64,000 bases of DNA from IMG/VR virus record IMGVR_UViG_3300050343_000212, one strand, 5' to 3'. Position numbers and translations under genes: made by a program. Source of the stretch: a virus. The notes beneath the pieces were generated by a model that saw nothing but the letters and a program-made list of their open reading frames with translations, did no database searches and was not told where the DNA came from. Position 1 is the stretch's first letter, and every line of letters begins with the position of its first letter. Shown here piece after piece: positions 1,765 to 53,858 of this stretch.

Positions 1765-2325
1765 ATTTTTTTCCAAGTGTTAAACTTAAGTTTTGCTTCT
1801 AAACCAGAATATGTGTTTGATTCTGAACATTATGGTTAAGTATTTAACAGGGTTACGATCTAGGGCTCTTCCCTGTATCCCTACCAACACATTATTTCTT
1901 ATTAAGGGTATGACAATCCTAGGATCCTCATGTTTACTGTCACTGCCGGTAAACTTATTAAAGTCTTCACAGAAATAGAAGTCACCAGAAAAGATTGCCC
2001 TGTCTTCTAAGTATTTCTTAGTCCTAGGTACATCAAAAGCTTTTGGCAGGTCCATCTTCGCCCTCTTCTCAAACTTAGGTTTGGAAGTATCTATTGTTTT
2101 GAATACACCCTCAGGAGTTTCAGTCACAAAATTCTTACCGGTGTGACCCTCTTTGAATTTCTCAAAGGTATATTGTTTATGTGTCTCACAATCAACCTCT
2201 TTAAGGAAATTGTTAAACGACAAACTCACACCGCAGTTGTGGCACTTATAATTTGTATTGTTCTTGACTCTATACAGGTATCCACGAGCCTTATTCTTAT
2301 GCTTCTGGGAATCACCACAAAGGGG
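1761..2325 (-). pseudogene. gp61: DNA primase gp61 remnant: N-terminus and TOPRIM region missing
   Basis: Zn-finger CGDSQKHKNKARGY...YKCHNCG read manually at 2325-2230; RIVIPLI...GIQGRAL; jumps at ~1824 straight to the terminal ESNTYSGLEAKLKFNTWKKI*. Confidence 0.85.
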
Positions 2326-2551
2326 TCATGATCGCTGTCCATTTTATCACGGAGTTTGTCGATTTTATCAAACAATACTTCGTCAATTTCTTCTTGCTTA
2401 GAAATTCGTTGTTCATGAACCGCTAACATGCGCGACACATTATTATTTACCTCTGCAATTTTTTCAATTGCAGAGTCAACCTTGAGACCAAAGTCTCAAA
2501 GTTTTCCAATCTTGTTTCTAAAACAGCAACCTTAACTTCATTTTCTTCCAT
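2326..2551 (-). pseudogene. Coiled-coil hypothetical protein, C-terminally truncated and fused to the primase remnant
   Basis: Manual read MEENEVKVAVLETRLENF...MLAVHEQRISKQEEIDEVLF; junction at ~2326. Confidence 0.5.
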
Positions 2552-2552
2552 C

Positions 2553-2700
2553 TTAAGGTTTCCAAGTTTTTCTTACACCCTTCATATAGATATATTTCTT
2601 TTTCTTCTTTAATCTTACTGGTGGATCATCACCTGCTTCAACTGTACCAGCAATTTTTCCCCCACCAACATTATTAGTAGGCAGCGGACATTAATTGTTC
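2553..2700 (-). CDS. Small basic hypothetical protein (start uncertain)
   Basis: Manual read PTNNVGGGKIAGTVEAGDDPPVRLKKKKKYIYMKGVRKTWKP*. Confidence 0.4.
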
Positions 2701-2714
2701 TTGAAACTGTTGAA

Positions 2715-3095
2715 AGGTTTTCATTATTTTTGTATATTGTCTGCAATTTTTCCAAACAATTCATATCAATTTGAATATCATGCATAAATGTTTTTGGATA
2801 TTCTGGAAGTCTTCTAGAAATAGTACAAAAGTTTTCATAGAAGACCAAAGATCATCTTCAATTTTATAGAACAACATTGGAGTTGTTGCTTCACCAAAGA
2901 TATTATAAAGAATAATAAAATGATTAAAAGAAGATGAGTCTTTAGTTGACCAGTATTTTTATATCTCGTTTCAACAATCTTTTAATATATTTAAAATGAT
3001 TTAGATCTTTATCAAAATCATCTTTAGTCACTGCCTGAGGATTCTCATAATTTTGAATGGCAAACAGAAGAAATTATCTTCTTCAATTCAATTCA
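2715..3095 (-). CDS. Hypothetical protein (frameshifted; boundaries approximate)
   Basis: Manual read across frames: QNYENPQAVTKDDFDKDLNHFKYIKRLLKR...HLLLNHFIILYNIFGEATTPMLFYKI. Confidence 0.55.
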
Positions 3096-3694
3096 TATCA
3101 ATTAACCATTTCAAATATTTAGATGTTATGCAGCAATAGTCAATGTGCCAGCAGCAGTGCCAATAGCAGTAGAACTTGTAATAGATGAGTTCAGTTGTTG
3201 TACCAGTATCCTTAATTGTTGAACCACCGTTTTGTGCAAGTGGGTTAGCAATAACATTGAGTACATCAAGCATTTATATCTGCTGATGCTGCACCTAATG
3301 TCTTACCAAATATCAATTCATTAGTACCTGATCCACTAACATAAAGACAAGTTTGATGTCTTGCTGCGTCTGTTGTGTTATTAACAACGAAATGTGGCGT
3401 TCCAGTTACAGTTACTGCTTCATTCCATCTTACACGCATAGAGATTGTACCACCAGCACCTTTACTAAAGGCGGTTGTCATAAATTCAATCTCAGTGATT
3501 GTAGCATTTTGTAGTCTATCAGCAAGATCACCAATACAACATAAAACTTCAGGTTGTGCATTTACATTACCATTGCCGGTCATTGTGGATCCACCTTCAA
3601 CAACCCATCCACTGTTATTAGCATATACTTCTTTTTTCTCAGAGTCAGTAAGCCACTTTGGTTTTGACTCATCAGTTATTCCCCATAAAGGCAT
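3088..3694 (-). CDS. Late, probably virion-associated, beta-rich hypothetical protein (frameshift ~3270)
   Basis: ORFs 3266-3694 and 3088-3273 join; Thr/Gly-rich; TATAAATA directly upstream. Confidence 0.6.
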
Positions 3695-3724
3695 GGTTCT
3701 TTCCCTTAAATTCTTTTATAGAGA

Positions 3725-3732
3725 TATTTATA
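3725..3732 (-). promoter_or_regulatory. T4-type late promoter TATAAATA
   Basis: Exact match 31 nt upstream of ATG 3694. Other exact copies: 10647-10654, 17883-17890, 37286-37293, 39977-39984, 45159-45166, 63649-63656. Confidence 0.85.
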
Positions 3733-3734
3733 AG

Positions 3735-3763
3735 AAAGGAGACCTTGTAGATTGGTCTCCTTT
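3735..3763 (-). terminator. Intrinsic terminator hairpin
   Basis: Perfect 10-bp stem AAAGGAGACC/GGTCTCCTTT with 9-nt loop right after the stop at 3766. Confidence 0.75.
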
Positions 3764-3765
3764 AA

Positions 3766-3967
3766 TTATGCTTCTTCGCGATTATTGATTGCTTTAGTCA
3801 CAACTTCTAAGAGTTGATCATCCATATCAGTCTTGGTCAACTTAACTGCCTTAGCAAGAATAACAAGACAGATCTCAACCATTTTCTCACCGAGTTCTTC
3901 ATTCTCTGGAATATTTGATAGCATCTTTAATAATTTTTGATGCTAGTGGAAGTAAAAATGCAAGCAT
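3766..3967 (-). CDS. Small hypothetical protein (one frameshift; not in ORF track)
   Basis: Manual read MLAFLLPLASKIIKDA...IPENEELGEKMVEICLVILAKAVKLTKTDMDDQLLEVVTKAINNREEA*. Confidence 0.6.
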
Positions 3968-4196
3968 GGTAAAGATCAATTGATGGCCCATCACCTTTAT
4001 TATTTGACAGAGATACTTTCATCACAGGATAAACAGAGGAGAAAGTATTATATCTATTCTGTCCTGTCTCAGCTGCGGTCTGAAAGTCCTGACTTAGAAG
4101 ATCATCATCACCCTTAAACAATCTCTTGTCGAATCCAGCGTTAGGACCAGCGGAATTTGCCGCATTTGTATATCCGTCGGCACCTACTTTCATCAT
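3927..4196 (-). CDS. Hypothetical protein (3' end possibly truncated)
   Basis: ORF track; start overlaps the upstream stop (ATGA-type coupling). Confidence 0.4.
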   Translation of the reverse strand: MMKVGADGYTNAANSAGPNAGFDKRLFKGDDDLLSQDFQTAAETGQNRYNTFSSVYPVMKVSLSNNKGDGPSIDLYHACIFTSTSIKNY

Positions 4197-4702
4197 GACT
4201 TAGATTTGCCCATGAACTGTTTGAAGGTCTTACGATGACTCTTGTATGAACCAATCTGACTCTTCAGGGTGTTGTAATCATTAGCGTCATAGGACTCTCC
4301 TACTGAGGAGGATCCACCATTATCACCCCCATTCCCATTGGAACCATTTCCATTCCCATTGGAACCATTTCCATTCTTATTCTCATCATCATCCACAGTA
4401 TGCCCATTCTCTTTGCGGAGCATGCCAGCAGGACCAACCATTTTAAACCCTTTTGGAATAGGCTTACACTTCTTGTCAGTATAACAATAGTAACTACCTG
4501 ACTTACAGGTCTTATGTCCTTCTTCTACCTCTACCTTATTAGGTAGTCCTTTGTGTTTGGTTTTAGCAAACTTCTTCACGTCGGACTTAGACATGGAGGT
4601 TGCAGCTTGAGAAATCTCAGACGAGGGACTTTTCATTTCCCCTTTCTGAGTTGATCTAACCATCCCGAAGAACCTTTGTTGGGCCTTTGATTTTGCTGGC
4701 AT
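4193..4702 (-). CDS. Hypothetical protein with DUF3008-like N-terminus, small Cys module and Asn/Gly linker
   Basis: MPAKSKAQQRFFGMV...KKFAKTKHKGLP; CKSGSYYCYTDKKCKP; ATG at 4702 adjacent to upstream stop. Confidence 0.6.
   Translation of the reverse strand: MPAKSKAQQRFFGMVRSTQKGEMKSPSSEISQAATSMSKSDVKKFAKTKHKGLPNKVEVEEGHKTCKSGSYYCYTDKKCKPIPKGFKMVGPAGMLRKENGHTVDDDENKNGNGSNGNGNGSNGNGGDNGGSSSVGESYDANDYNTLKSQIGSYKSHRKTFKQFMGKSKS
4329..4376. repeat. 21-bp tandem repeat (2.3 copies) encoding NGNGSNG
   Basis: CCATTCCCATTGGAACCATTT x2 plus a partial copy. Confidence 0.9.
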
Positions 4703-4703
4703 G

Positions 4704-5834
4704 TCACTTCTTCTTGGTATCAATGATAGCACCCTGTCCATGTTTAGCACGGATACTTGCCTTCACTTTCTCAAGTGCCGACATACCGTCATAGGGTTTT
4801 TTCTTTCCACCACCCATAGCAACATTCTTGGTAGCACTATTATAACGGTTGTTGCCGTCAACACCACCACGCTCCATACGACGGTCTTTCAGAGAATCTT
4901 CGGTTGATTCACCCATTGCTTTTGTAGGTGCTTCAGACTTTTTCACCTTACTCAATCCTTGCTGTCTTTTCTGAGCAATCATTCTATCAATCATTGCTTT
5001 CTTCTTTTGAAGTTGCAGTTCTTGAGGACTCATTGATGCATCTTCACCCATGTGATCTGCTTTCTTATAACGTTTATCACCAGACATCATTTTCTGATAT
5101 GCGGGAGTGTTTCCTTTCTTATCAGCATTAGTAACAGTCATACGAGTATCTTTTGGTTCTTCCTTTTTCTTAGGAGTACCGCCATACACTGCCTCTTCAA
5201 CCTCAATCATCTCAAGGATTTGACCTCCCAATTCTGCAATAGCTTCTGTCATTCCCATGGGGGGATTGATAATAACCTTATTTTTTACCTTTTTCTCAGA
5301 GATTTTCTCTCCAGATTTAGTATCAGTCTTTCCTTTTGGTGAAGCATTTCCACCAACATACTCAGAGAGATCAGTTCTCCAAGAGACATGCTCATTGACA
5401 TCACCATCAGTATCTTTCTTATGGAGATTCTTGTAGAGGTGTTTATGGAGTGGTTTTGCCTTATTAAGGATCTTATCCTTAGTCTTATAGTTATCTTCTT
5501 CCTTCATGGAACATTCTTTTTCCTTACCATGAATAGGACAATCTTCACCCTTGGGGGAGTGATTGCATTCTTTTTTCTCATCCAATACTTCTGTTTCTTC
5601 ACCCATGAAACCGAGTTTCTGCCTCAGTGCAGTTCTCTCAGTACCACTCAGTTGATTCTTTGCAACATAATCATTAAAAGCCTTAGGTAGGGGAACACCA
5701 TCTCTACGAGATTGATATCTGATAGCCTTAGCGTGAGCTCCAACATCAGCTCCACCATCTTGCCCCCCACTCTCCATGTCTTCTTGGAGGTTTTGAAGGT
5801 AGATGGCACTCAATTCTCTGAGTTCAATATCCAT
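4704..5834 (-). CDS. Lys/Glu-rich low-complexity late protein, candidate internal head protein
   Basis: 376-aa ORF; CATAAATA late-like box at 5864-5871; modular segments bounded by hydrophobic-x-E motifs. Confidence 0.65.
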   Translation of the reverse strand: MDIELRELSAIYLQNLQEDMESGGQDGGADVGAHAKAIRYQSRRDGVPLPKAFNDYVAKNQLSGTERTALRQKLGFMGEETEVLDEKKECNHSPKGEDCPIHGKEKECSMKEEDNYKTKDKILNKAKPLHKHLYKNLHKKDTDGDVNEHVSWRTDLSEYVGGNASPKGKTDTKSGEKISEKKVKNKVIINPPMGMTEAIAELGGQILEMIEVEEAVYGGTPKKKEEPKDTRMTVTNADKKGNTPAYQKMMSGDKRYKKADHMGEDASMSPQELQLQKKKAMIDRMIAQKRQQGLSKVKKSEAPTKAMGESTEDSLKDRRMERGGVDGNNRYNSATKNVAMGGGKKKPYDGMSALEKVKASIRAKHGQGAIIDTKKK

Positions 5835-5846
5835 GAGACTGTTTTA

Positions 5847-7088
5847 CTACTTTTTCCTGTACTTATTTATGAATTGTTTACCATAATCATATCCAGGAGT
5901 CTTATCTTGTACATTCTTCAGGTACCCATCAGTTCCAATAAGGGTGTTTGGGTGTTTACCATCTCTCTTTTTCCTGTTCATTTTGACCTCAGTGTACTCA
6001 TTTAGGTCACTAATCCAGGATTTGAACATCACATTATCTTCGGTCACACAGATTAGATAGTTGGTTCCTCTACGAATGACCTTGCCGATGAGTCCAGTGT
6101 TAAGGCTCTCAACTAACTGATTAACCTTAAAAAGACCACCATTGATATAGTTTTCTCTAAGGTTTTTCCAATCAAACTTAGGTGCAATCTCCCAAAGTGA
6201 CCACCCCTCTTTGACTGACATTCTCTTTTTGAGAGTTGTCATCATCATTTTAGCAGTTTTGTCGTCGATTGTGTCAGGAATACCAGTACGATATGTCTCA
6301 AAATCGTCCTCAAGGGCCGCTTTTCTCATCTTCGACGCCGACATTCCCTCAGTTCCTTCTGCATCTGAGTCTCTATCACCAGCCGATACAGTTGCCACGT
6401 CAGAAAAATCATAGAGTTTTCCGTTGTATTCGCTAGAGAGTTTGGTGAATTCCTGAACCCGGTCACCACCAACCACAATTTTAACACTTGAATGTCCATC
6501 TGAATATGCCTGTTTCAAAACATCAAAAATAGTCTTAGAGTTGGGATCATTGACTATATTCTCAGCATAATCTGGAAAAGACTGTCTCATGACATCAACT
6601 TTCTCGTCTGGATCAAGAGGATTCTTCTTAGGATCTACTGATCTAGAGGGATATATCTTTAAAGATCCCTTACCTGCTGCCTTTTTAGCAGCATCTAATA
6701 ACTTTTTATGTCCAATCGTTGGAGGGTTGAATCTGCCGAAAGTGACTGTGAGAGGTCCAAGATCTTCTTTAGCTGACCCATCAGCTCTAGTAGGAGCTGG
6801 CATTCTTCTTGGTTTTCCATCTCCAAATGTTCCAAATTCTCCCTGCTGCACAGGCATTTGTCGGACAGATTGTGGTTCATCTGAAGATTTTAATTCTTTT
6901 TTTGGTTCTTCTTGGGATAGTTCCTTCTTAGTAAGCATCTGAAGGGTTCCCTTGCTAGTAACAGCTACCCTAGCACCCTCTTTATCATACCAATTACCAT
7001 GACCATCTCCCGTTAAACCCTTTCTTTGGGCTTGATCAGAGACGGTCGAAGTTCTAGCTTCTTTTAAAAAGTTGAAAAAACTCTTCAT
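5847..7088 (-). CDS. HxGH-type nucleotidyltransferase (cytidylyltransferase/NadD/CoaD-like) with capsid-targeting-like N-terminus
   Basis: TFGRFNPPTIGH and GMSASKMR signatures; N-terminus MKSFFNFLKE; TCTAAATA at 7111-7118. Confidence 0.85.
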   Translation of the reverse strand: MKSFFNFLKEARTSTVSDQAQRKGLTGDGHGNWYDKEGARVAVTSKGTLQMLTKKELSQEEPKKELKSSDEPQSVRQMPVQQGEFGTFGDGKPRRMPAPTRADGSAKEDLGPLTVTFGRFNPPTIGHKKLLDAAKKAAGKGSLKIYPSRSVDPKKNPLDPDEKVDVMRQSFPDYAENIVNDPNSKTIFDVLKQAYSDGHSSVKIVVGGDRVQEFTKLSSEYNGKLYDFSDVATVSAGDRDSDAEGTEGMSASKMRKAALEDDFETYRTGIPDTIDDKTAKMMMTTLKKRMSVKEGWSLWEIAPKFDWKNLRENYINGGLFKVNQLVESLNTGLIGKVIRRGTNYLICVTEDNVMFKSWISDLNEYTEVKMNRKKRDGKHPNTLIGTDGYLKNVQDKTPGYDYGKQFINKYRKK

Positions 7089-7121
7089 CAGTTATTATAT
7101 CCCATGGGATTATTTAGATGA

Positions 7122-8039
7122 TCAGGCGTATAGGACATCCTCCAGAGCATTTGTTGATGACTCTTGATCTCGGGGAAGAACATAGTTCATGACTAGAAGT
7201 TCTTCCTTTTTATTCTTGTTTTCTTTACGATGAGCGAGACTATAACGAAACTCAAAAGTTTCCATATGAAATTCATCGAACTGTTCCCTTAACCAGGGGT
7301 GTTCATTGTAGGTAATCATCCAATTGTGGGGGGTGTCCTTACACGCTTTGACGAAGCCTTCATGAGAGAAACCAGTGTGCATCTCCTTGTTCTTACCATA
7401 CAACATATCTTTGATGAGATATGGAGGGTCAAGGAATACAAATACATCCTCACCAGGAGCTTCCATCAGGTCACGATAGTCCTGATTGGTAATCCTCCAG
7501 GGTTGAATGATCTCACTGATGTTAGCAAGTTTCTTGATCTTACTCTGTGAGAAAATGGTGTTCTTGTAAGAATCACGGATGAAAGCATTCTTGTTCTGTT
7601 CAGTAAAACCACCGAAACTAGAACGATTCAGGACATAGAAAGCAGTGGCGAGTTCAAAGTCATCGTCAGAAGTGTTGATGAGATCTCTCATATCAGCATA
7701 GAGAGCTCGGTGTTTAGCCTCCAGTTCCTCAACACCCTCAGCACGACAAGCTTCATCCTTGAGTTCAAGGAGTCGATTGATAAGGGCATCAGGATTCTTC
7801 TGTAGTTGAGTCCAGAAAGCGAACAGATTGTAGTACAAATCATTGACCCAGACAGGAACACCTGGATACATGACAGAGAAAGTAAGAGCACAAGATCCAC
7901 CACCAAGGAAACCTTCACGGTATTCTTTGATGTTCTCAGGAATCATGTTCTTACGGAACAGGTAGTAAATGATCCGTGATTTACCACCGGGATACCGGAG
8001 GACAGTGGGGTACTTACGACGTTCAACGATCTTGGCCAT
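7122..8039 (-). CDS. dam: DNA N6-adenine methyltransferase (Dam/D12 class)
   Basis: LRYPGGKS, EGFLGGGS (motif I), NDL, FLDPPY (motif IV), EELLVMNY; target site not determinable from sequence. Confidence 0.92.
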   Translation of the reverse strand: MAKIVERRKYPTVLRYPGGKSRIIYYLFRKNMIPENIKEYREGFLGGGSCALTFSVMYPGVPVWVNDLYYNLFAFWTQLQKNPDALINRLLELKDEACRAEGVEELEAKHRALYADMRDLINTSDDDFELATAFYVLNRSSFGGFTEQNKNAFIRDSYKNTIFSQSKIKKLANISEIIQPWRITNQDYRDLMEAPGEDVFVFLDPPYLIKDMLYGKNKEMHTGFSHEGFVKACKDTPHNWMITYNEHPWLREQFDEFHMETFEFRYSLAHRKENKNKKEELLVMNYVLPRDQESSTNALEDVLYA

Positions 8040-8061
8040 GTAGACTCATTCCTATAATTCA

Positions 8062-8090
8062 ATATTAGCATGAAAAGACCACCCAGTCAA
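8062..8090 (-). promoter_or_regulatory. Sigma70-like promoter for the methyltransferase
   Basis: TTGACT-17nt-TAATAT with TG upstream of the -10. Confidence 0.7.
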
Positions 8091-8101
8091 GTCGGATGGT
8101 C
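8073..8101 (-). terminator. Intrinsic terminator after the nuclease-like gene, overlapping the MTase promoter
   Basis: GACCATCC-9nt-GGGTGGTC followed by TTTT. Confidence 0.6.
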
Positions 8102-8115
8102 CGGTTTGTCAAGTG

Positions 8116-9486
8116 TCAGGATAGTTTAACGTATGGTCCTGATACCCCTGTGACAGTAGAGGAAGCGTATCTATACATATCTTCCATTAACATATTTTTC
8201 TTTTTATCATCATTGATACCATTGATGATTTCAAACAATTTTACTGTAAGATACTTCGATTGTCTATAATTTGTGTCTCCTTGTAACCACCTCATCTCAG
8301 CTTCAGCTTCTTGATTTGCGTTGACAAGTCCGAGACTTTTTGATGTTTTAGCCACCCACTCAGCCATCTTTTCATCTCCCTGAACGGCAATTCTCCTAGA
8401 AGTTGGGTTGTCTGGGAGTTGATCAAATCCATGAGATTTCAGAAGGTTACTCATTGCCCCATGTCCGACCTTTCCATGTCTAGCCGATCCACCAAGAACC
8501 TCACCAGAGAAACCACCAGAACTAGTAAATGTTCTGAAGTTAACTTTGATTTCCTGAGGTCCTTTCTTCATGATGAGATAACCACTGGTTGAAGTCATGG
8601 GTGACTCCATCTTCTCATACTTAAAATCAACTGTAGATTTATCAGTAGGAAAGTTTATATCTGCGAGGTTTGCTCCTCTCTCCATCTTCTTGAGTGAAAC
8701 TCCAATGAACTTCTTGTCTTTCAAGAGTTCAAACATTCTAGCATTCAGAGTTTCCCATGTTGTGATACCAGCCAGTTCCTCCTGCAATTGTTGAGCAGTG
8801 AATCCACTCTTAGCAATGTAAATATCAGCTGGTGACCACTTATTCAGGTCACCATACCAACCCTGAACTTTCTTAACTTTCTTGAAAACATCACCAACCT
8901 TATCAACCATGTCACCACCACGGAGATACTTATATCCTTGACCGTATGGTGTTTTGAGTTTAAGTGCTCCCATGATGGATGACTTCTTCCAATCAGGATC
9001 CATCGACTCAATCTCTTCAAAGGAGGCACCTGTAGTAACACACTTGTCGTATGCCTTCTTTAGTTTCTGTGAATCAATAACACTATCAACAGTAACTCCA
9101 GCATTATCAATAACGTACTGAGCGTAAACTGCTTGACCAGATTCAGCGATCGCTGTCTTCTTAGAAGCTGAATAACCACCACCAACAGGTGGTTTTACAT
9201 TTATTCTAATTTTCTTATTCGTATTTTTAATCAGAACATCAATCTGAGTGTCCTTACTGTCAGTACTTACAATATAATTAGAGTTCTCAAGGTTCTTCTT
9301 GAGATTAGCCGTAGCTCTCTGTCTTTGAACTTGTGGGACTACTACTCTAAACGTGGCTATGATTCTGGATCTACCAGAGGCAGCCATTGTAGTTGAGAAA
9401 TCAGAGTAGTAGTTATAATCATCACTGCCCATCGCATCAACGACCGCCAACATGGCTTTCTTAGCTTCGGGAGGGATTGTACTCAT
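8116..9486 (-). CDS. Putative PD-(D/E)XK-like nuclease
   Basis: 456-aa ORF; NKWSPADIYI followed by FIGVSLKK resembles a PD...(S)xK nuclease core; family call is from motif only. Confidence 0.45.
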   Translation of the reverse strand: MSTIPPEAKKAMLAVVDAMGSDDYNYYSDFSTTMAASGRSRIIATFRVVVPQVQRQRATANLKKNLENSNYIVSTDSKDTQIDVLIKNTNKKIRINVKPPVGGGYSASKKTAIAESGQAVYAQYVIDNAGVTVDSVIDSQKLKKAYDKCVTTGASFEEIESMDPDWKKSSIMGALKLKTPYGQGYKYLRGGDMVDKVGDVFKKVKKVQGWYGDLNKWSPADIYIAKSGFTAQQLQEELAGITTWETLNARMFELLKDKKFIGVSLKKMERGANLADINFPTDKSTVDFKYEKMESPMTSTSGYLIMKKGPQEIKVNFRTFTSSGGFSGEVLGGSARHGKVGHGAMSNLLKSHGFDQLPDNPTSRRIAVQGDEKMAEWVAKTSKSLGLVNANQEAEAEMRWLQGDTNYRQSKYLTVKLFEIINGINDDKKKNMLMEDMYRYASSTVTGVSGPYVKLS

Positions 9487-9671
9487 TTTTGCAATTCCTC
9501 TAAGTAATCCAATGATACCAGTTTGCTCTCATATTCTGGTCCGAAATATTCTTTCACTTTGATCGGCACACCCATAACAGTTGGCCACCCACTCGCGACA
9601 TAGGTGTAAACAGTTTTACTATCCTCGTTCACAAAGTGAGGCCAAGGATACTTATACATCAATTTTCCCAA
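9483..9671 (-). CDS. Small hypothetical protein
   Basis: 62-aa ORF overlapping both neighbours. Confidence 0.6.
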   Translation of the reverse strand: MGKLMYKYPWPHFVNEDSKTVYTYVASGWPTVMGVPIKVKEYFGPEYESKLVSLDYLEELQK

Positions 9672-10618
9672 GAACCAACAACCTCGATGATACGTTGAAT
9701 TTCAGATTCTGTAAACCCCTGGAGCTCCAGTTCTTCTTTTTTCATCTTTGTCATGGAATCCATGGCCATACGACGCTTAAACTGTTTGTCAGCTTCCTTG
9801 GTGTCACCCTTTGACTGAGCCATCATGTCCTTATTATAAGCTTTGTTCTTTTGAGAATCAACCTTTGCCTTATTCATAGGCATATAACCCTCTTTCTTGA
9901 ACTGAGGATGGTCATCAAGTTTCATACCACGTTTCTTCTCAAGACGTGCTTTCTGTTCTGCAGAATTATTACCTCTAATGTTCTTCTTATCAGAAAGAGC
10001 TTTCTTCATTGGCTCTTTCTTATTTCCATCCTTATCAAAATCAAGGTAATCTGGTTTAGCACCTTCACTCATTCTCTTGGCTACGTTGACAGCTCCACGA
10101 GCTACCTTCATAGCTCCTTTCTTGAGCATTGACTTGATACCACTCTTAGCCTTAGCCTTCATCTCAGAACCTTTTCTCTGAGCCTGAGCTGACATGTTCT
10201 TAGTTGTCTGACCAGCTCTTCTAGCCTTCATCTTAGCATTAGCTTTAGCGTCTCTATATGCCCCATATGCTTTGACTGCACCTTTAGCAGCTTTCGACTT
10301 GACCGTGCCAATGGCTGACTTCAAACCTCTCTCCAATCTATCTGTCTTTTTGGCTTTAGTACCAGCGGTATCGTGACCGTAAGTTACTTTAGCTTCTGAA
10401 ATGACTGTGGTGAAGATTGCTTCACACTCTTCTACTGTATAACCTTCGTCCAGAAGTTCACCAAGTGCTTCTTCACAAAGATCCTCAAGTTCTTCATCAT
10501 TGATCCCAGAGAGGTCCATTTCAGCGATCTCGTCTCTTTTCGCTGTTAGTTCTTCTCTAGCTTCGGTACTATGGACAGCGCTGTACGCTTCCATAAAATT
10601 ACGCATAGATGCAGACAT
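9659..10618 (-). CDS. Late hypothetical protein with acidic N-half and Lys/Ala-rich C-half
   Basis: 319-aa ORF; TATAAATA at 10647-10654. Confidence 0.7.
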   Translation of the reverse strand: MSASMRNFMEAYSAVHSTEAREELTAKRDEIAEMDLSGINDEELEDLCEEALGELLDEGYTVEECEAIFTTVISEAKVTYGHDTAGTKAKKTDRLERGLKSAIGTVKSKAAKGAVKAYGAYRDAKANAKMKARRAGQTTKNMSAQAQRKGSEMKAKAKSGIKSMLKKGAMKVARGAVNVAKRMSEGAKPDYLDFDKDGNKKEPMKKALSDKKNIRGNNSAEQKARLEKKRGMKLDDHPQFKKEGYMPMNKAKVDSQKNKAYNKDMMAQSKGDTKEADKQFKRRMAMDSMTKMKKEELELQGFTESEIQRIIEVVGSWEN

Positions 10619-10632
10619 CTTCTTTACAATTA

Positions 10633-10842
10633 CTATTTCCTGTCTTTATTTATAGAGTCGAGATATTCTCTTTCAGTTTGATACAGAGAAGAGGGATTGA
10701 GATAAATCTCAACTCCCTTCATTATTTCTGGTATCAACCACTCATGAATAGGAAGACACGCTTGCCAGTTCACTGGTTGAATACAGTTCATTATCACAAC
10801 AGCCCAAAAGGCGTTTAGATAGTTAATCAGTGTCGTCATCAT
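10633..10842 (-). CDS. Small hypothetical protein
   Basis: ORF track; likely start MMTTLINY at 10842. Confidence 0.55.
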   Translation of the reverse strand: MMTTLINYLNAFWAVVIMNCIQPVNWQACLPIHEWLIPEIMKGVEIYLNPSSLYQTEREYLDSINKDRK

Positions 10843-10955
10843 TAAAGAAGGAACCAAATTGGCCTTTACTTCCCAGTTCCCTACTATCGATCATATCCAT
10901 AATTTCATCAAACTTTTTAGTTTGTTCCATACTCATCAAAATCTCTGATAGTTGT

Positions 10956-11345
10956 TTAACTACCAGTGGTTTCAACATCAAACTCACCACCAGGATATCG
11001 TGCTTTGAGTTTCTCTACATTCATCTCAATCACCTCATCAAAGGTTGTATCAAGTGCCATACATGCCTGAGCAAGATACCAACAGATATCACCCAGTTCA
11101 CGTTTCATATGAAAGACATTCTCTTCATTATAAGGTTTACCTTGCAAGAAGATCTTTTTTACAACTTCAGTAAACTCACCTGCTTCTGCAGATAATCCAA
11201 GAGCAGCAGTTAGAAGTTGTGAGACGTTTGCATCATTTACTTCAAGTTCACTAAGACGTGCAGCAAGAATAGGCCAGTCAAGACTTGGTTCACTAGTAAC
11301 TCCTTTTACAAATTCAAGGTACTTTTCGGTATCAACTTTAGTCAT
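10956..11345 (-). CDS. mazG: MazG-like nucleoside triphosphate pyrophosphohydrolase, C-terminal tail replaced at a junction (~10975)
   Basis: GLSAEAGEFTEVVKK, ELGDICWY, NVEKLKARYPGGEFDV; own ATG at 11345. Confidence 0.9.
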   Translation of the reverse strand: MTKVDTEKYLEFVKGVTSEPSLDWPILAARLSELEVNDANVSQLLTAALGLSAEAGEFTEVVKKIFLQGKPYNEENVFHMKRELGDICWYLAQACMALDTTFDEVIEMNVEKLKARYPGGEFDVETTGS

Positions 11346-11654
11346 GAAAATCAGGGATAAATGGTTCTTGGACAATTTGGAGGGATTGTTGGTAGGAAGT
11401 TTTTGTCCTTCTACTTCAATATATTCTACCTCTTCCCAACTACCACCAACACCACCGTCCATATTGACGACGATATCTTTAGTTGGAAGTTTGGGTCTTT
11501 CTAAAAGTTTGACCTCAACGGTTTCATAGATTGGTTTGAATTGGTAATAGTGTCCATCACCTCTTGTTCCAATAAGATTAACGGCATCTTTAATAGAACC
11601 ACAATCAGCAATCTTTTTACCAGTTGGATCAAATACAGAGTAGTATCCGTTCAA
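11346..11654 (-). CDS. Hypothetical protein, appears fused in frame to mazG (probably an indel error)
   Basis: First ~100 aa of ORF 10956-11654; start overlaps the gp41 stop. Confidence 0.55.
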
Positions 11655-12635
11655 AACTTAAACCCCTCAAATGATTTCTTTGGTTTTGCTCATCGTTATT
11701 ATACTCTTCATCCTTACCACTGTCAAGAATATCATCTTGTGCAGACTGTTCACAATCATACAAACGCATCTTTGCACGATCAATACCAACACAAATCTTT
11801 TAGAGATAGTTGGATCATTATATCTATTCTTCAATTGCTTCACCAGTAATTTGTCCTAGTCCTTCGAGGTCTTCAGTAGAAATAAGGGCAAACATAAGAT
11901 CAGCAGTAGCAGGGAGACCAAAGGACTCAGAAGTGTCAGTAAGCTCAACATCAGAGCTACCATAACCAGAACGAGTGGTCTGCGTGGCAGAAACGATAGG
12001 GACGTTTGCTTCACAAGCCAGTCCTCTAAGTTCTTCAGCAATTGCTTTGACAACTGTATATGAATTGACATTGCTACCAGCGCGATATCTTGCGGAAGCA
12101 CATATATTAAGGTAATCAATGAAAATAATATCAGGTCTAAATGATTTCTTAAGTGCAAGTTCATTAAGAAGTGCCTAAAGTGTCCACTATGTGCTGATGC
12201 AGTTGGATATTCTTTAATTATAAGAGAACCTTGAGTTTTCTGCGATAGTTTTGTTACCTTTTCCTCAAACATTGTTTAGGTAGATCTGTTATCTCCTGAA
12301 TAGGTACATTGAGTAGGTTAGCATCAATTCGCTCCGCAATTTTCTCTTCAGCCATTTCAAGCGTGATGTATAATACGTTTTTCCCTCCCAGGAGTGCGGA
12401 AGCTGCCACATGACACATAAACAAACTTTTGCCGACACCAGTGCCAGCGAGAGCAATGTTAAGTGTTTTATTCGGGAGACCACCCTTCGTAATCTTGTTG
12501 AAATACTCCAGGTCGAACGGGATTCTTGTCTTCTTCACGGTGGTATGATTCATATCTTTCTTCATAATCAAGTAAGTAGTCATGTCCTACATGAGCATCA
12601 AAAGAAACTGCCAGAGCTTCTGATAGAATACTAGA
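11651..12635 (-). pseudogene. gp41: Replicative helicase gp41 with N-terminal domain missing and several frameshifts
   Basis: Walker A LAGTGVGKS, ITLEMAEEKIAERID, IIKEYPT, VSATQTTR (manual), KQLKNRYND; begins abruptly at SILSEALAVSFD. Confidence 0.9.
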
Positions 12636-13629
12636 ACTGAACTCCTCCTTTGCAATTGCATCTAGTTTCTCCATCACCTCTGGTGTGAAGTATGCTTCTG
12701 GGTCTTTGTAGATTGCTTTGGCATAGACTTTCTTACCGTCTATCTCATAACGACCTGCAACATTTTTCCAGAGACCTCCCAGTTCACCCAGTTCAAGAAG
12801 ACCATAATATCGATCAAGACCACGCTCATCGTAATAGAGACGTATGGTAACATCTTTGTTCTCCTTACTTAGACGCGACTTTGCTGTCTTAGCTTTAATA
12901 AGATTTCCAATGACTTCTGTTCCATCCTTTTCTTTCTTTTTGCTGAGATAAATGATTGTAGACGCTGCATATTTGAGACCGCTGCCTCCGCCCATTTCTT
13001 TGGTGGGAACGTATGATCCGATGACATCATAGGTATGATTGGTGACGATTAATGGAATTTTTGCTTGACCAAGTTTGAGTGTAAGCATACGGAATGCTCC
13101 CTTGACAAGTTGAGATTTGGTCATGTCCCGAACTTGCTTATCATCTAGTGCATCACGAATCTCCTTCTCTGTGGAAAGCATACCAAGAGAGTCTAACACA
13201 AACATGCAGGGTCTGCGTTCTTCTTCAGATTTTTTTAAGTATATGTCTACTGCCTTCAGTGCCTTGGTTCTAAACTCTTCAATGGTGACAACATTGACCA
13301 CCACCAAGTCGATCCATGTCTACCCCACGACTTGCGATAAGACCCTTGTTAACAGCGGCTTCAGTGTCAAAATATAGACAATAACCATCAGGATTAGAAT
13401 CAAGGAAATTCTTGACGACTGCCAAACTAAAGAAAGTTTTTCCAGTAGAAGACTCCCCAGCAATGGCAGTAATCTTATTCCCAGATACGCCACCAAATAT
13501 ACTACCTGAACAAAGTCCGTTAAAGATGTACGAACCTGTGTCCACGAAAGTTTCTGTGTCGTCGATGTCTCTTGCGAGTTTGGTATAGTCATCTCCAATC
13601 TCTTTTACAATCTCTTTTAAAAAATCCAT
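12635..13629 (-). CDS. uvsX: RecA-like recombinase UvsX (frameshift ~13300; last codons lost at the gp41 junction)
   Basis: AGESSTGKT, FDTEAA, LDSLGML, VTNHTY, MGGGSGLKY. Confidence 0.93.
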
Positions 13630-13798
13630 TAAATAACAATTCCAAATTCTTCACGGGCAATTTTTTGTAAGGACCACCAGGATTAGCATCACGGATATCC
13701 TTAATCCTTTTCAGTTTCTGATAAAGGGCAGCATCTCCCCCGAGACGCATAGCACTAATAATAGTACCAAGTTCTTTGTCGTTAATAGGTAGTTCCAT
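13629..13798 (-). CDS. Small hypothetical protein (frameshifted)
   Basis: MELPINDKELGTIISAMRLGGDAALYQKL; TAATG overlaps at both ends. Confidence 0.55.
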
Positions 13799-14838
13799 TA
13801 GGAGAAAAATAATTCCAGGTTTACAGTTTTTTCGACATTCCAACCAATCGCATCAAGAATTGCTTTCAGTGGTTCGACAAAGGACTTCTCAAATTGTAAG
13901 TCATAGTCGATGTACTTGTCAAGGTTAAGTTCTTTAGGGAACTCTTGAATGAATGAGATGATATTCTCATGAATAATATTTGGTTTCTTTAGATAACAAA
14001 ATTTAATCTTTTCACCATTTTTGATTAAGAATACTTGGACTCAAGTTTGTTCTTCTTGATATAATGATTAAAAAGACAATGCTCCACGACAATGAATAGG
14101 AGTTCCCTTAGAATAAATGTCAGAAGAAGATTTATACTTTACAACATCAGATACAGATCGAGGGAATGATATCTGTTCGGGTGGTAGTTTTTTAAACTCT
14201 TCACGACACTTATCAATGAATGAAATCACATCATCTTCAGTGCCAGTCATCATCAATTTGAAAGCATCCTTAATCATCTTCCTACAAGGAGCAGGTGTAG
14301 ATGATTTAACTGCTTCAATACCCATCATCTTTAGTTTAGGTTCTTCATATCGAACACCCTCACTATCCCACACATTAAGAATGTATCTTTTCTTCGCAGT
14401 CCAGATGCCACGATCAGCAATATTCTCACGCTTCATTTGCATTTTCTGGTCATATGCCGATACATACGTCGCCAGGTTCTGGTAGCATTTATCGATGTAC
14501 GGTTCCAGTTTGTCACGACAGACCATATCAAGTAACTCCACAACTTTTGCTTTGTCGCTAGACTTATTAGCAAAAAATTTATCAACAAGAGGTCCAAGAT
14601 TAAGATAAATTGAATCTGTGTCAGATGCAATTACGTAGTCCTCGTCGGTTGTAGACAACAGTTTATTTAGATACTGGTTCATCTTACTCTCAATCCAACG
14701 GATAGAGACTTGACCAGAAAGCGTAATCGCCTCCGCATTGGCCAGTTTATAGTACCTAAAATACTGATTACCGATAGCACCATAAGCAGAGTTGAGTGAG
14801 ATCTTCTTAGCCATCTGGATATTGTTGCACTTCTCCAA
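13798..14838 (-). CDS. gp43: Family B DNA polymerase gp43, C-terminal part (second fingers helix, palm, thumb); frameshift ~14070; start uncertain
   Basis: QMAKKISLNSAYG (region III), SDTDS (region I), KKRY, MGIEAVKSSTP; ends ...LELFFS*. Confidence 0.93.
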
Positions 14839-15754
14839 TAATCCATGATCTCATACCATATGGTCTATCGGCAATAATAGTCTGAGTATGTTCTACCACA
14901 TCTTGTGGTACAACTAAACAGAATCCAATACCTAGATTGAATACATTTCTCATTTCTTCCTCATCAATGTCTCCTGCCTGTTGGATCTTATTGAAGAGTT
15001 CTGGTCTCTCCCAAGAAGAGTAATCAACATCAACTGTAAGACCTGATGGAAGACACCTAGGAAGGTTCTCAGGGATACCACCTCCAGTGATATGTGCCAT
15101 ACCTAGGATAGGAACCTCATCCAATAGGTGCTGGATTAGACGAGCATAGATGGTAGTTGGTCTCAACAACTCAGGCATCTCTTTATATTTAATGTAATTT
15201 CTCCACAACATATCATTGATGAGTGTGTATCCATTACTATGAAGTCCATTACTCTCAATACCAATGACTACATCACCCGCTTGGATGTTTCTACCATCAA
15301 CAATATCATTCTTCTCTACAATACCAGTACAGAAGCCAGCAACATCATAATCATTTTGTCTGAAATGTTCTGCAGTTTCTCCACCTATTAGTTCCATCCC
15401 CGCTATTGTACAACCAACATTAATCCCATATACAATGTCGCTGACATTAGCATCAAGTGTTTTGGTAGAGACATAATCTAAAAAATATAATGGTTTAGCA
15501 CCGGAACATATAACGTCATTAACGCACATAGCAACAAGATCCTGACCAATAGTGGTGTAATCATGAGCAATCCTACAGATATTCATTTTAGTTCCGACAC
15601 CATCAGCTCCAGATACCAACACGGGTTTCTCATATCCTGATGGGATCTCCATCATTCCACTAAATCCACCGTCAATCTTAGGTGCCAGTACCTTAATGTA
15701 TTCAACAAAAGATCTACCCTTAATAATATCAACTCCAGAAGTTTTGTAGTCCAT
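14807..15754 (-). CDS. purM: Phosphoribosylaminoimidazole (AIR) synthetase
   Basis: MDYKTSGVDI, SGADGVGTK, DLVAMCVND, IGGETAEH, GLHSNGY, AHITGGG, FNLGIG. Confidence 0.96.
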   Translation of the reverse strand: MDYKTSGVDIIKGRSFVEYIKVLAPKIDGGFSGMMEIPSGYEKPVLVSGADGVGTKMNICRIAHDYTTIGQDLVAMCVNDVICSGAKPLYFLDYVSTKTLDANVSDIVYGINVGCTIAGMELIGGETAEHFRQNDYDVAGFCTGIVEKNDIVDGRNIQAGDVVIGIESNGLHSNGYTLINDMLWRNYIKYKEMPELLRPTTIYARLIQHLLDEVPILGMAHITGGGIPENLPRCLPSGLTVDVDYSSWERPELFNKIQQAGDIDEEEMRNVFNLGIGFCLVVPQDVVEHTQTIIADRPYGMRSWIIGEVQQYPDG

Positions 15755-17216
15755 CAGATTCCCCTCCGTTTCATTTCAGCTTCAATGTCAACTAATTTCT
15801 GTTTTGACTTCAACATCTTACCCTTGAAGACCTTACGATCAGCATACATCTTCTCCATCAATTCAGGCAAGAAACCCTTGGTATCTTTACGGAACATAGC
15901 TCCATTAGCACAGACAGCATAGTCGCTATAAAGTTCAAAGTTAAGTTTCTCACCTAGGATCTTGTCCACTGTGACACTAGGATGTTTTTCACTCATGAGT
16001 GTTTCGGGAGAGATATTATACTGCATCATCAGGTGAGGATACAGAGAGTTCAAGTCAAAGGATACCACATATTCATAAACACCTGGTTTAGGTTCTTTAA
16101 CATAAGCCCCAGCAAACTTATCACTCTTCTCAGATGTATTCCTAGGTGGAATGACAATATTTCTCTTCTTGAGATAGTTGTAGATAATCGTATCCCACAT
16201 ACGGACTTGAGCCATAGGATCAATGAAGTTCACCTTTGCATCAAATGCCATGGTGATGACCAACTCAATCAGTTTCATTTTGTCTTCCAAACGGTCAACA
16301 AGTTCCACGTCTTTGATGTTGTAATCAATGAACTTCTTCCAGTTTCCCCTATAGAAATCCTTAAAAGTATCAAACTCACTGTGGTCTAGTTTCTTCTGTC
16401 CTAGTTCAACCTCAGCAATAAAGTCCAATCTATAGGACTCACGATTCACATAAGTAAATTTCTTATAGAGTTCCAGGTAGTCAAGTGTAGTAACACCAGA
16501 AATCGAATAGACATTATATTCACGACCAGAGATACCAATCACCTGATGATCTACCATCTTCCAGGGTGAAAGTTGTTTCATTTTCTTATCACCCATGATT
16601 CGTGACATACGACCACAGAGATATGGAATATCATATAGACGAACATTCCAACCAGTGATCACATCAGGAGTATTCTGTTCCCACCAATACAAAAAAGATT
16701 CAAGCATAGCAATCTCATCACTATGATAATGATAAGTCACATTATTCTGTGAGGGGGTATATGGATGACGACCCCAGGTAGTAATCTGTTTAGTAGTATA
16801 ATCTTGAATTGAGATAGATAACATCTCCTCAGAACATGAATCAGGACTAGGGAATCCCATCTTCAGACTGTACCTCAATATCCATGGTGACCAGTCCAAT
16901 CTTGTTTCAGATCAAACTTGATCTCCTGCTCAGGATACTTATCAGAAATATATTGATACTGATATCTCTCATTCCCATAAACCTTAAATCCCTCTACACC
17001 ATCATACTTTTTGATGAAGTCTCTGCAGTCTCTTACCAATCCAGGTTTGATGGGTTCAACATGTTCACCCTCAAGTGTACGGTACTTGGTCTCTCTCTTA
17101 GATTTTACAAAAAGAGTGGGAGAATACTTCTCTTGGAACATCACTTTTTGCCCATCCTCATATCCACGGACGAGAAAATTGTTTCCGATCATCTGGACGT
17201 TGGTATAAAACCTCAC
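15754..17216 (-). CDS. gp43: Family B DNA polymerase gp43, N-terminal part (N-domain, 3'-5' exonuclease, region II); frameshift ~16890
   Basis: MRFYTNV, DIE, ITGWNVRLYD, YNIKDV, SFDLNSLYP; own stop after ...EAEMKRRGI, TGATG-coupled to purM. Confidence 0.95.
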
Positions 17217-17485
17217 TTCAATAGATCCTCATACTTTGTTTTCAATTTACTATTGGGTACAACAATGGTCAAAACTTTATCAGAACTGATCATAAAATCA
17301 TTTTGAATTGTCAGGTTCATTAACCATGGAGATAATTCTTCTCCATTAACAATAAAAGGTTCAATCAACTTACAATCTGGTTCTCCCAGTTCTGATGGTT
17401 TCTCCTCAATCTGACTGATCAGAATCTGATTGTTCACTAGTACCAGAATCCTGATGTTGTTCAATACCGGCAATTCCTCGCTCAT
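17213..17485 (-). CDS. Hypothetical protein (Sm-like fold suspected)
   Basis: ORF track; ATGA overlap with the gp43 start. Confidence 0.7.
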   Translation of the reverse strand: MSEELPVLNNIRILVLVNNQILISQIEEKPSELGEPDCKLIEPFIVNGEELSPWLMNLTIQNDFMISSDKVLTIVVPNSKLKTKYEDLLK

Positions 17486-17759
17486 AAGTCTCCTTTAATT
17501 CGTCAATTGGTTCAGTAATAGTTATAACCCAATCAGCTACTACAGAAATAGTTTCCTCTTTACTGAGTGGCATCCAAGGTGTCAATCTCATTTTGAATGG
17601 TTCCTTTGCAGGTCCAGACCGATCAGCCTGATTACCCATCAACTTGACCACACAAGGATACTTGAGAAAGTATCCAACTACCTGATCGTGAGCAACCATT
17701 TCGGTCATGTCGGCAATTACATCTTCACCAGACTTCAATAAACAAAGTTTGATAGTCAT
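17406..17759 (-). CDS. Hypothetical protein (Sm-like fold suspected)
   Basis: MTIKLCLLKSGEDVIAD...PWMPLS, same pattern as 19103-19393. Confidence 0.75.
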   Translation of the reverse strand: MTIKLCLLKSGEDVIADMTEMVAHDQVVGYFLKYPCVVKLMGNQADRSGPAKEPFKMRLTPWMPLSKEETISVVADWVITITEPIDELKETYERGIAGIEQHQDSGTSEQSDSDQSD

Positions 17760-17781
17760 TTATATAAAATTTCCTCTAGTC

Positions 17782-17810
17782 ATTTTACTGCATAAAAAAG
17801 GGGGTGTCAA
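17782..17810 (-). promoter_or_regulatory. Sigma70-like promoter upstream of the gp43 operon
   Basis: TTGACA-17nt-TAAAAT. Confidence 0.8.
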
Positions 17811-17827
17811 CTGGATTGTGCCAGTTC

Positions 17828-17890
17828 CGTAGCTCCTTTAAAAGCGAGTTTGTGTTTTGTGGACCCCGAAGGCATCCATACTTATTTATA
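17828..17890 (-). promoter_or_regulatory. Orphan late leader (late promoter, UUCG hairpin, strong SD) with no CDS behind it
   Basis: TATAAATA, GGATGCC-TTCG-GGGTCC, AAAGGAG, then no start codon at SD distance. Confidence 0.65.
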
Positions 17891-17899
17891 ACACAAAAC

Positions 17900-17933
17900 A
17901 AAAAAAGAGGAACGGTGATAACCGAACCTCTTT
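17900..17933 (-). terminator. Intrinsic terminator downstream of regA
   Basis: AAAGAGG..CGGT-TATC-ACCG..CCTCTTT plus T-run. Confidence 0.75.
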
Positions 17934-17979
17934 ATATGGTGTTCCGACTTTCGTAGAGACCGCACGAAAGGTCTCAGTC

Positions 17980-18421
17980 TTATTTAGATTCTTCTTCTTG
18001 AGGTTTAGTCTTCTTACCAATATTATACTTCTGCTCCAAATCCAATCGTTTTTGTCACGATATGGAAAACTTTGATTTGATTCAGTGGAGCAATATCTGA
18101 ATACTATCTTCATTTACAACTGAGATAAGTCCCCAGTCAGCAAGAAGACGAGTAATACGATTCCTACGCTGAACATCATTAACAGTAAGGTTAGCGTATT
18201 TACCATCAAGGGCAAACAACTCCTTAAAGTGCACGATGTAGTATTTACCCTGCTTATGCAAAATATGACAAGATTGATAAAGTTTCTTTTCTTTTCTTGA
18301 AGCAACTCCAATTCTTGTTAGGGTTTCTCTTACTTTAAGGAAATCATCAGGTTCATTTAAGAAGACCTCAATCATTTTATCTTGAGACCAGGAAACCTGT
18401 AGGTTCATCTGTTTGTGTCAT
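17980..18421 (-). CDS. regA: Translational repressor RegA (frameshifts near both ends)
   Basis: FLKVRETLTRIGVAS, LYQSCHILHKQGKYYIVHFKELFALDG. Confidence 0.96.
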
Positions 18422-18806
18422 TTTTTGCCACCAATGTCAAGTCGTTGTTTAATGTAGTTGAATTGTTCAGTTTGATAAAATTTTCAGAGCTTGAGATGCT
18501 TTCTCATTACTATAACCATAGTATTGTTTAACAATGTCTAAATCTGATACTTTATCCTTCCGGATCCAAGGAGAAAATCTCTTTCTCTTTCTCAGAGATA
18601 TTTAGATAAAATTTATATTGCATATCTTTATCTAAAAAATGATACCTATTCATTTCATTGGCATAAAGAACAGTATCAAGATGACCTGACAGACATTTGT
18701 TAATAATAAAGGGGGGATATGACTTGATGACATGTTCATCATCTTCAGTAAGATCATTCTTATTGAAGTTAATAGAGTTCAGCCAATCCTTCAGTTCAGG
18801 TTCCAT
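18418..18806 (-). CDS. gp62: Clamp loader small subunit gp62 (frameshifts)
   Basis: LKDWLNSIN, YPPFIINKCLS; manual continuation DLDIVKQYYGYSNEKA; ATGA overlap with regA. Confidence 0.9.
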
Positions 18807-19106
18807 TAATTAAAGAAAATTTGAAAGTGCAATGGGTCGTATGGAACTCCATGATACCATTTTTTGCCATGATGTCCTCTTCCAGGTCCATTGTGTGAAT
18901 GTTTATGACAATGACTATATCCATATCTATCGTGATAATGACAATGTCTATGGGTCACACCGTGAAAATGATGGCGATGACCAACTCGTCGAGTTGCAAC
19001 TCGTGGTCGATGAGCCCTTGGTGGATCATGAATTGATACTTTATGAGCAAAAAGCTGGAGTAGTTAGGAAAATACTACCGGCCAGTACTAAAAATAATTT
19101 CTTCAT
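18806..19106 (-). CDS. His-rich small protein with signal peptide (hidden by a +1 T in a homopolymer at ~19050; absent from ORF track)
   Basis: Removing one T gives 99 aa, MKKLFLVLAGSIFLTTPAFA-HKVSIH...; start overlaps the upstream stop (ATGA) and stop overlaps the gp62 start (TAATG). Confidence 0.75.
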
Positions 19107-45138: not shown

Positions 45139-45161
45139 CGCAAATAAAGAGTTTCTTTTAT

Positions 45162-48904: not shown

Positions 48905-48949
48905 GTCAGTTATTAGTAAGAATACTTTGGGATTTCTCTCCCGTTCTTA

Positions 48950-49372: not shown

Positions 49373-49380
49373 ATATTACC

Positions 49381-50388: not shown

Positions 50389-50418
50389 CAGTCTAGTGTT
50401 TATTTGTTACTATTTAGA

Positions 50419-52965: not shown

Positions 52966-52970
52966 TAATC

Positions 52971-53834: not shown

Positions 53835-53858
53835 TTATATACTATAACTTTTTACTAT

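Follow-up and report, generated by a model that had tools for sequence, protein, structure and literature searches.

In the virus record IMGVR_UViG_3300050343_000212 (64,000 nucleotides (nt); the whole stretch is called the window here), the gene for a T4-type DNA polymerase, gp43, is interrupted at the tip of the fingers domain by purM, which encodes aminoimidazole ribonucleotide (AIR) synthetase. Our comparisons indicate that the N-terminal polymerase half (gp43A) and purM come from a phage with a naturally split gp43 and are joined to the C-terminal part of gp43 from an unsplit lineage, most likely as an assembly artefact or a corrupted record. Among marine cyanomyoviruses, a split gp43 is itself widespread; the cultured Synechococcus phage ACG-2014f has one.

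All genes of the gp43/purM locus lie on the minus strand. Handles beginning with L or G denote contigs used for comparison; L005, L006 and L007 are split-type relatives of the window's gp43A and purM, and phage S-SM2 has an unsplit gp43. The features of the locus are as follows.
17828 to 17829, no strand: right end of the L005/L006-like block, a second breakpoint specific to the window; L006 runs on to hsp20, which the window lacks.
16878 to 17216, minus strand: gp43 N terminus, residues 1 to ~105 (16875 to 17216 in the list of open reading frames (ORFs)), out of frame with the rest of the N-half; tblastn with S-SM2 gp43 gives three frames.
16859 and 16904, minus strand: two one-base insertions that frameshift gp43A, seen as gaps in the alignments with L007 and L006, where the ORF is intact.
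15754 to 16899, minus strand: main gp43A ORF, 381 amino acids (aa), with the exonuclease domain and motif A (Pfam DNA_pol_B_exo1 and DNA_pol_B).
15752 to 15756, minus strand: TGATG, in which the gp43A stop and purM start codons overlap, preceded 8–12 nt upstream by GGAGG; a native junction.
14807 to 15754, minus strand: purM ORF, 315 aa (Pfam AIRS and AIRS_C).
14829 to 15754, minus strand: native part of purM, L005 type, 99.7% identical to L005, with AIRS and AIRS_C.
14828 to 14829, no strand: junction 2, the illegitimate join between purM and the C-half, with 2-nt microhomology (GT).
14807 to 14828, minus strand: non-native tail of the purM ORF (QQYPDG and stop), which is gp43 DNA in a shifted frame.
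14068 to 14838, minus strand: C-half ORF of 256 aa, which starts at TTG and carries motifs B (KKISLNSAYG) and C (SDTDSIY); it derives from an unsplit S-SM2-like gp43.
13798 to 14071, minus strand: remaining gp43 C terminus, behind a compensating frameshift pair (~14071 and ~14026).

Much of this layout had been set out in a preliminary description of the DNA. As stated there, the N-half ends in its own stop, the TGA of which overlaps the purM ATG (TGATG, read from 15756 to 15752), and the C-half, from a TTG start, overlaps the last 32 nt of purM. Motif A (DLNSLYPHL) lies in the ORF at 15754..16899, which ends ...KQKLVDIEAEMKRRGI, that is, ...EMKRRGI followed by TGA; the C-half ORF reads (L)EKCNNIQMAKKISLNSAYG...DTDS. 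With the exonuclease domain and motif A in the N-part and motifs B and C in the C-part, the interrupted gene has the motifs of a family-B polymerase of the T4 gp43 type. Both PurM domains were detected over the full length of the purM ORF (PF00586, 1.3e-20; PF02769, 5.5e-25), which aligned end to end with ACG-2014e PurM (86.5% nt identity) except for altered last residues. The gene had been taken for an intact 315-aa purM; an ORF of that length with both domains is present, but its last six residues are non-native, and native purM is 310 aa long, ending ...WIIGEVK* in L005 and ...VIGKVQ* in ACG-2014e.

The C-half is, judged by its sequence relationships, the C-terminal part of an unsplit gp43 from another clade and not a gp43B. 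Homology to L005, L006 and L007 ended at 14829, and the next ~360 nt of L005, comprising orf79 and the first ~43 codons of gp43B, were absent from the window. Identity of the C-half to the gp43B of L005, the true partner, was only 74.6%, versus 86–87% to gp43 of S-SM2 and 88–90% to seven metagenome contigs (L177–L183). At the fingers tip, gp43 was unsplit in all five of these contigs that were read across it (L177, L178, L181–L183: ...ALEKEIARCNNIQ; ...KQEYEKTPTKALEKEIARCNNIQMAKK), and the N-parts of all seven were only 67–68% identical to the window N-half. A maximum-likelihood tree of C-parts placed the window inside the unsplit S-SM2/L074/L039 group (Shimodaira–Hasegawa-like approximate likelihood ratio test (SH-aLRT) support 96–97), far from L005 and L007. 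The C-half corresponds to the C-terminal 346 codons of unsplit gp43. It begins with CNNIQ, ~43 residues inside gp43B, and has only a TTG start; complete gp43B genes were found in the relatives L005, L007, L098, L101 and L163. We also surveyed 80 IMG/VR loci chosen for carrying the gp43B leader, and in all 80 gp43B started ~43 residues before the point at which the window C-half begins, with an MGYLIGG leader and an ATG.

At the base level, L005-type sequence (...GGAGAAGT) is joined to unsplit-type sequence (GCAACAATATCC) through two shared bases (GT). The window purM ORF ends in QQYPDG because the native purM end and its stop codon were lost at this junction. The preliminary description had treated the C-half as the gp43B partner in this genome. 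That claim falls, since the N-half and purM matched the split type (99.2–99.7%) and the C-half matched the unsplit type (86–90%); halves matching different phages, one split and one unsplit, were the very outcome that the description had said would mark a chimeric join. Its caveat that the purM/C-half junction might be a chimera proved apt, the join being specific to the window. Neither IMG/VR nor the 241 million JGI metagenome records contained the 30-, 26- or 22-nt k-mers across junction 2, and an exact look-up of the 315-aa chimeric purM product found none on record. A 31-mer from the C-half did match L008, but this contig begins 125 nt away from the junction, without reaching it, and its identity is just 86%.

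Two simpler origins of the join were tried and rejected. One was a deletion within a split-type parent: split-type gp43B genes were at most 77% (nt) and 81% (aa) identical to the C-half, versus 86–90% (nt) for unsplit relatives. Nor was the join a homologous crossover in the motif-B region, because the two points it connects, the end of purM and gp43 codon ~487, are not homologous.

The gp43A/purM junction is genuine. Three independent IMG/VR contigs, which derive from different metagenomes (L005, L006 and L007), contain the exact 31-mer that spans it, in agreement with the earlier judgement that this junction looked clean. Window positions 14829–16782 were 99.74% identical to L005 with zero gaps, and 14829–17134 were 99.2% identical to L007, the sole gaps being the two frameshifting insertions in the window. 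The gene row of L005 and L007 is intact and tightly packed: gp43A, purM (310 aa), orf79 (phrog_1286, function unknown), gp43B (388 aa), uvsX, a 2-oxoglutarate (2OG)-Fe(II) oxygenase gene and gp41. Their gp43A ends ...RRGI with TGATG, and gp43B has its own ATG (MGYLIGGAGE...). The N-half of the window likewise stops at the fingers tip; its end is identical in L005, L006 and L007 and homologous to the 43A end of Aeromonas phage 44RR2.8t. In L006 (positions 1–1174), the same gp43A (99% aa identity) and an identical TGATG precede a purM allele that shares just 85% identity with its L005 counterpart, and AT-rich, non-coding sequence takes the place of orf79; the cargo of L006 is replaced behind a fixed seam.

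Junction 2 is one of many window-specific lesions in the first ~19 kb of the window. Within gp43, the insertions at 16859 and 16904 spread residues 1–120 over three frames, relative to intact L006 and L007, and the compensating frameshifts at ~14071 and ~14026 enclose two in-frame stops. The window ORFs are therefore unable to give a gp43 protein, with four frameshifts besides the purM interruption and stops in the shifted stretch. Elsewhere, comparison with S-SM2 proteins showed that nrdA is spread over four frames, gp61 has an internal deletion, gp41 has lost its N terminus and is frameshifted as well, uvsX carries one frameshift and gp62 two. A further single-base indel lies at 13304. Several small ORFs in window positions 1–19000 are also broken; gp44 and gp45 are intact.

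At 12634/12635 the window has a deletion of ~460–940 nt that was not present in any relative spanning that point. It removes the gp41 N terminus (~130 aa) together with the 2OG-Fe(II) oxygenase gene, or the hypothetical gene, that lies between uvsX and gp41 where either is present. To the right of gp43, L006 was 100% identical over 17200–17828 (629 nt) and then continued into hsp20; the window instead jumps towards regA. The L005/L006-like block thus runs from 14829 to 17828, exactly 3000 nt, with non-homologous ends on both sides, a round length that may hint at how the sequence was assembled. Further along, window positions 44584–61500 aligned with G001, the nearest record, at 97% identity without a gap. 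Because this stretch is gap-free, the damage is local and not general sequencing noise; G001 covers only window positions beyond 35 kb and is uninformative on gp43. Long-read indel noise as the sole cause was likewise rejected, given these 16.9 kb without a gap and small indels that are not of the homopolymer type. Findings that rest on junctions or short ORFs in window positions 1–19000 are accordingly suspect and should not be taken at face value.

In the explanation that we favour, positions 14829–17828 would derive from an L005/L006/L007-type phage, with a switch at 14828/14829 to the C-part of an unsplit S-SM2-like gp43, and the polymerase as written could not be made, each half carrying two further frameshifts. 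An artefact, from a patchwork or chimeric assembly or else a corrupted record, is the most likely source because there are many other window-specific lesions in the first 19 kb and no independent contig contains the join. A real molecule, faithfully sequenced, would be either a dead-end illegitimate recombinant or a decaying genome that arose from co-infection with a split-type and an unsplit-type cyanophage. In its favour, cyanophage genomes are mosaics, illegitimate recombination typically shows microhomology such as these 2 nt, genes on either side of the join retain their synteny and orientation, and a ratio of 16 substitutions to 2 indels relative to L007 is not absurd for decay. We nevertheless regard a real molecule as unlikely. 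The breaks in nrdA, gp61, gp41, uvsX, gp43 and gp62, all inside 19 kb, would make replication of such a phage impossible, which is why we favour an artefact; moreover, none of the joins recurs in a second contig, and the foreign block spans exactly 3000 nt, neither of its ends being homologous. Several points weigh against an artefact. Sequence alone does not separate it from a real defective recombinant molecule. Had the chimera been random, one would not expect it to re-enter the same gene in matching orientation, with synteny preserved on either side; template switching, or patchwork scaffolding guided by a reference, accounts for this better than a mis-join at random. The small indels, being non-homopolymer, are explained by no specific sequencing platform. 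The missing matches to junction 2 are weaker evidence than they seem, since the records searched may lack close kin of the window.

Two further explanations would leave the window with a functional polymerase. One is the two-subunit enzyme of the preliminary description, in which gp43A runs to the TGATG, purM is translationally coupled to it and gp43B starts from the TTG in the end of purM. The ORF layout is as described, and motif A falls in the N-half and motifs B and C in the C-half; even so, this is very improbable, given a true gp43B start ~43 residues earlier in the surveyed loci, a C-half from the unsplit clade with no Shine–Dalgarno sequence ahead of its TTG, and four extra frameshifts with in-frame stops. 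The other is that a split intein, a group I intron, programmed frameshifting or bypassing heals the halves into one full-length gp43. Fractured phage genes with split inteins and homing endonucleases are known from marine metagenomes (PMC2677866), yet we give healing almost no credence here. Neither half has extra intein-sized sequence, and Pfam found only polymerase domains, with no intein domain, in both halves. In Rfam, the window had no match with E ≤ 0.1 and four natural loci had none reaching the gathering score; the absence of an intein or intron signature noted earlier thus held in both databases. In natural forms without cargo, a stop codon 4 nt ahead of the gp43B ATG closes that reading frame, and elsewhere the intervening cargo reaches 3.2 kb.

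The window copy is corrupted and unfit as a type example of the split gene; L005 and L007, which are short contigs, or L163, on the 90.5-kb contig 3300020462_000001, serve better; L005-type phages are represented in 3300020438 and 3300017746. A search with the 388-aa gp43B returned more than 7000 proteins, and the IMG/VR loci number ~360. The best 120 clusters were all 386–392 aa long with full coverage and came from NCBI, JGI, ENA and Tara sources, on contigs of up to 191 kb. The 191-kb contig carries gp43A (487 aa), orf65 and gp43B (387 aa) in a normal T4-like replication module. In GenBank, ACG-2014f (Atlauavirus) has two coding sequences (CDSs) annotated 'gp43 DNA polymerase' (491 and 389 aa), which flank two small ORFs.

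The best PDB matches of the natural halves were RB69 and T4 gp43. Mapped onto RB69 gp43, gp43A aligned to residue 494 and extended ~15 residues further, and gp43B aligned from 525–530. The split thus lies at the fingers tip (RB69 ~509 / 525–530); nothing is lost, and the two halves sum to the length of unsplit gp43. gp43A (~487 aa) contains the exonuclease domain, motif A and the first fingers helix, and gp43B (~388 aa, with its own ATG) contains the MGYLIGG leader, the second fingers helix, motifs B and C and the thumb. The ratio of non-synonymous to synonymous substitution rates (dN/dS) was 0.03–0.06 for gp43B and 0.11–0.16 for in-gap purM, both indicative of purifying selection. In the C-part tree, which is unrooted and built from a sample picked for split forms, unsplit gp43 genes (S-SM2, P-TIM68, L039 and L074) were nested among split ones. 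Such nesting may imply repeated fission, re-fusion or recombination of halves, as far as an unrooted tree of a split-biased sample can be read.

The space between the halves varies. In about half of the 80 surveyed loci they were 2–11 nt apart, and the cargo-free seam reads ...AAG TAATGGG, in which stop and start overlap (TAATG) and the KRRG codons provide a GGAGG. The remaining gaps held small ORFs, purM, PurS, a D12 adenine methylase, a DruA-like protein, a 773-aa protein of unknown function or an HNH endonuclease. purM occupied the gap in 13 of the 80 loci, at no fewer than four separate places on the tree. A search for gp43A–purM–gp43B synteny, as the preliminary description had proposed, found independent contigs in which purM lies between gp43A and a complete gp43B that starts from an ATG of its own (L005, L007, L098, L099, L101, L163 and others). 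The idea that purM occupies the gp43 split therefore stands for the lineage, on the strength of these contigs, but not for the window, where the C-half is not a gp43B.

The cargo boundaries recur. purM starts at the gp43A stop (TGATG) in L005, L007, L098 and L099; small ORFs precede it in L101 and L163. In each of the four loci checked for this (L005, L098, L101 and L102), the first cargo gene, whether purM, a 128-aa ORF or an orf65-like ORF, begins at the gp43A stop in a TGATG. In the same four, AAGTAA terminates the final cargo ORF, either right at the gp43B ATG or a few bases short of it, and in this way the closing part of the cargo-free seam is reused. In-gap purM is followed by orf79 in three loci (L005, L007 and L101) and by purS in at least three (L146, L161 and L164). 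Between lineages, synonymous divergence was far lower in purM than in gp43B (for example, 0.69 versus >4), which indicates that purM has moved between lineages.

On balance we lean towards a fingers-tip fission that is conserved in a large cyanomyovirus clade, with the TAATG seam acting as a cassette hot spot at which purM, purS, Dam-type methylase, DruA-like and HNH genes have been placed repeatedly and independently in the polymerase operon. Where cargo is present, the cassettes lie exactly at the gp43A/gp43B overlap point, and purM, a recurrent cargo, shares one compact row of same-strand genes with the polymerase halves. By analogy with Aeromonas phage 25, and in view of the strong purifying selection, the gp43A and gp43B polypeptides would form an active polymerase, coming together at the palm and the two fingers helices. 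Cargo such as purM would be co-transcribed, and probably translationally coupled, with the polymerase halves, which would link AIR synthetase supply to replicase expression. Speculatively, endonuclease breaks at the seam might drive both the original fission and the turnover of cargo, a notion prompted by the HNH gene in L128 and the seg gene of phage 25.

Individual loci showed further kinds of cargo. A PurS homologue, a subunit of phosphoribosylformylglycinamidine (FGAM) synthase, lies in the gap with purM in L146 (4438–4716), L161 (4117–4371) and L164 (4011–4289) and without purM in L119 (4566–4844); the Pfam test was run on the L146 copy only (PF02700, 2.5e-17). The gap of L128 holds a 153-aa HNH endonuclease-like ORF (4226–4684; phrog_374, 1.4e-56), the sole cargo ORF found there. 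In L166 (1782–4998) the gap contains the 773-aa unknown protein and a D12 N6-adenine methyltransferase, and in L162 (3393–4454) a 354-aa protein with a DruA-like domain.

The Aeromonas salmonicida phages 44RR2.8t, 25 and 31 are known to have a split gp43, with 43A and 43B as separate genes (Petrov, Karam and co-workers; reviewed in PMC2988022 and PMC2677866), and the polymerase halves of Aeromonas phage 25 co-purify and are active (PMC2988022). The cyanophage enzyme resembles these as a T4-like family-B polymerase with halves of similar size (~487 + ~388 aa, versus 498 + 391 aa in 44RR2.8t). The preliminary description had mentioned fingers-split T4-like phages of the Aeromonas 44RR type, and 44RR2.8t is indeed cut at the same position: ...ASRGVKLDH* / MELELF...LSTDELQQM, against ...KRRGI(K)* / MGYLIGG...LSDSELRKL in cyanophages. 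Gap DNA is variable in both groups: 44RR has a spacer that is not translated, phage 25 a homing endonuclease (seg), and cyanophage L128 an HNH endonuclease. Unlike the Aeromonas phages, which are Straboviridae, the cyanophages belong to the Kyanoviridae, their halves overlap (TAATG) rather than being separated by a spacer, and their cargo includes the metabolic genes purM and purS, which are not reported for the Aeromonas phages.

ACG-2014f shares the break point, the leader motif (GYLIGG) and the two gp43 CDSs with the L005-type loci, but its gap lacks purM. A looser parallel is offered by nrdA of Aeromonas phage Aeh1, which mobE splits, and by fractured genes in marine metagenomes; in these, a mobile gene separates the two ORFs of an essential gene for replication or nucleotide metabolism, and the halves come together again (PMC2988022, PMC2677866). 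The metagenomic fractured genes use split inteins, whereas none was found here, and the intervening genes of cyanophages are mostly not endonucleases. Our literature search found no paper on a split cyanophage gp43, nor on purM or purS inside the split. The split is known from Aeromonas phages and is present in GenBank cyanophage records, where it has apparently gone undiscussed.

gp43, an essential enzyme, is a standard marker gene for cyanomyovirus diversity. A gp43 in two genes with swappable cargo at the seam bears on marker amplification and on annotation. It also offers a natural test case of a polymerase built from two subunits cut at the fingers tip, and a bench study is possible because ACG-2014f is cultured. 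The arrangement hints at how metabolic genes may be brought under the control of a replication operon; if this is true, seam cargo would tie nucleotide supply to replicase expression.

purM also occurs outside the split. The in-gap copies, in the window and in the 13 IMG/VR loci, resemble the purM of cyanomyovirus isolates (ACG-2014e, S-RIM12 and S-SKS1; 78–91% aa identity), which is often followed by orf79 with the same short overlap; unlike the in-gap copies, isolate purM sits in a purC/purM island far from gp43. None of the INPHARED genomes had purM between gp43 halves. The purM–orf79 pair was also found away from gp43 in many contigs. In unsplit S-SM2-like relatives, purM lies ~0.5–1.2 kb upstream of the gp43 start, outside the gene (L177:11695–12632 and L181:4926–5863), and purM is thus tied to the polymerase neighbourhood in unsplit lineages too.

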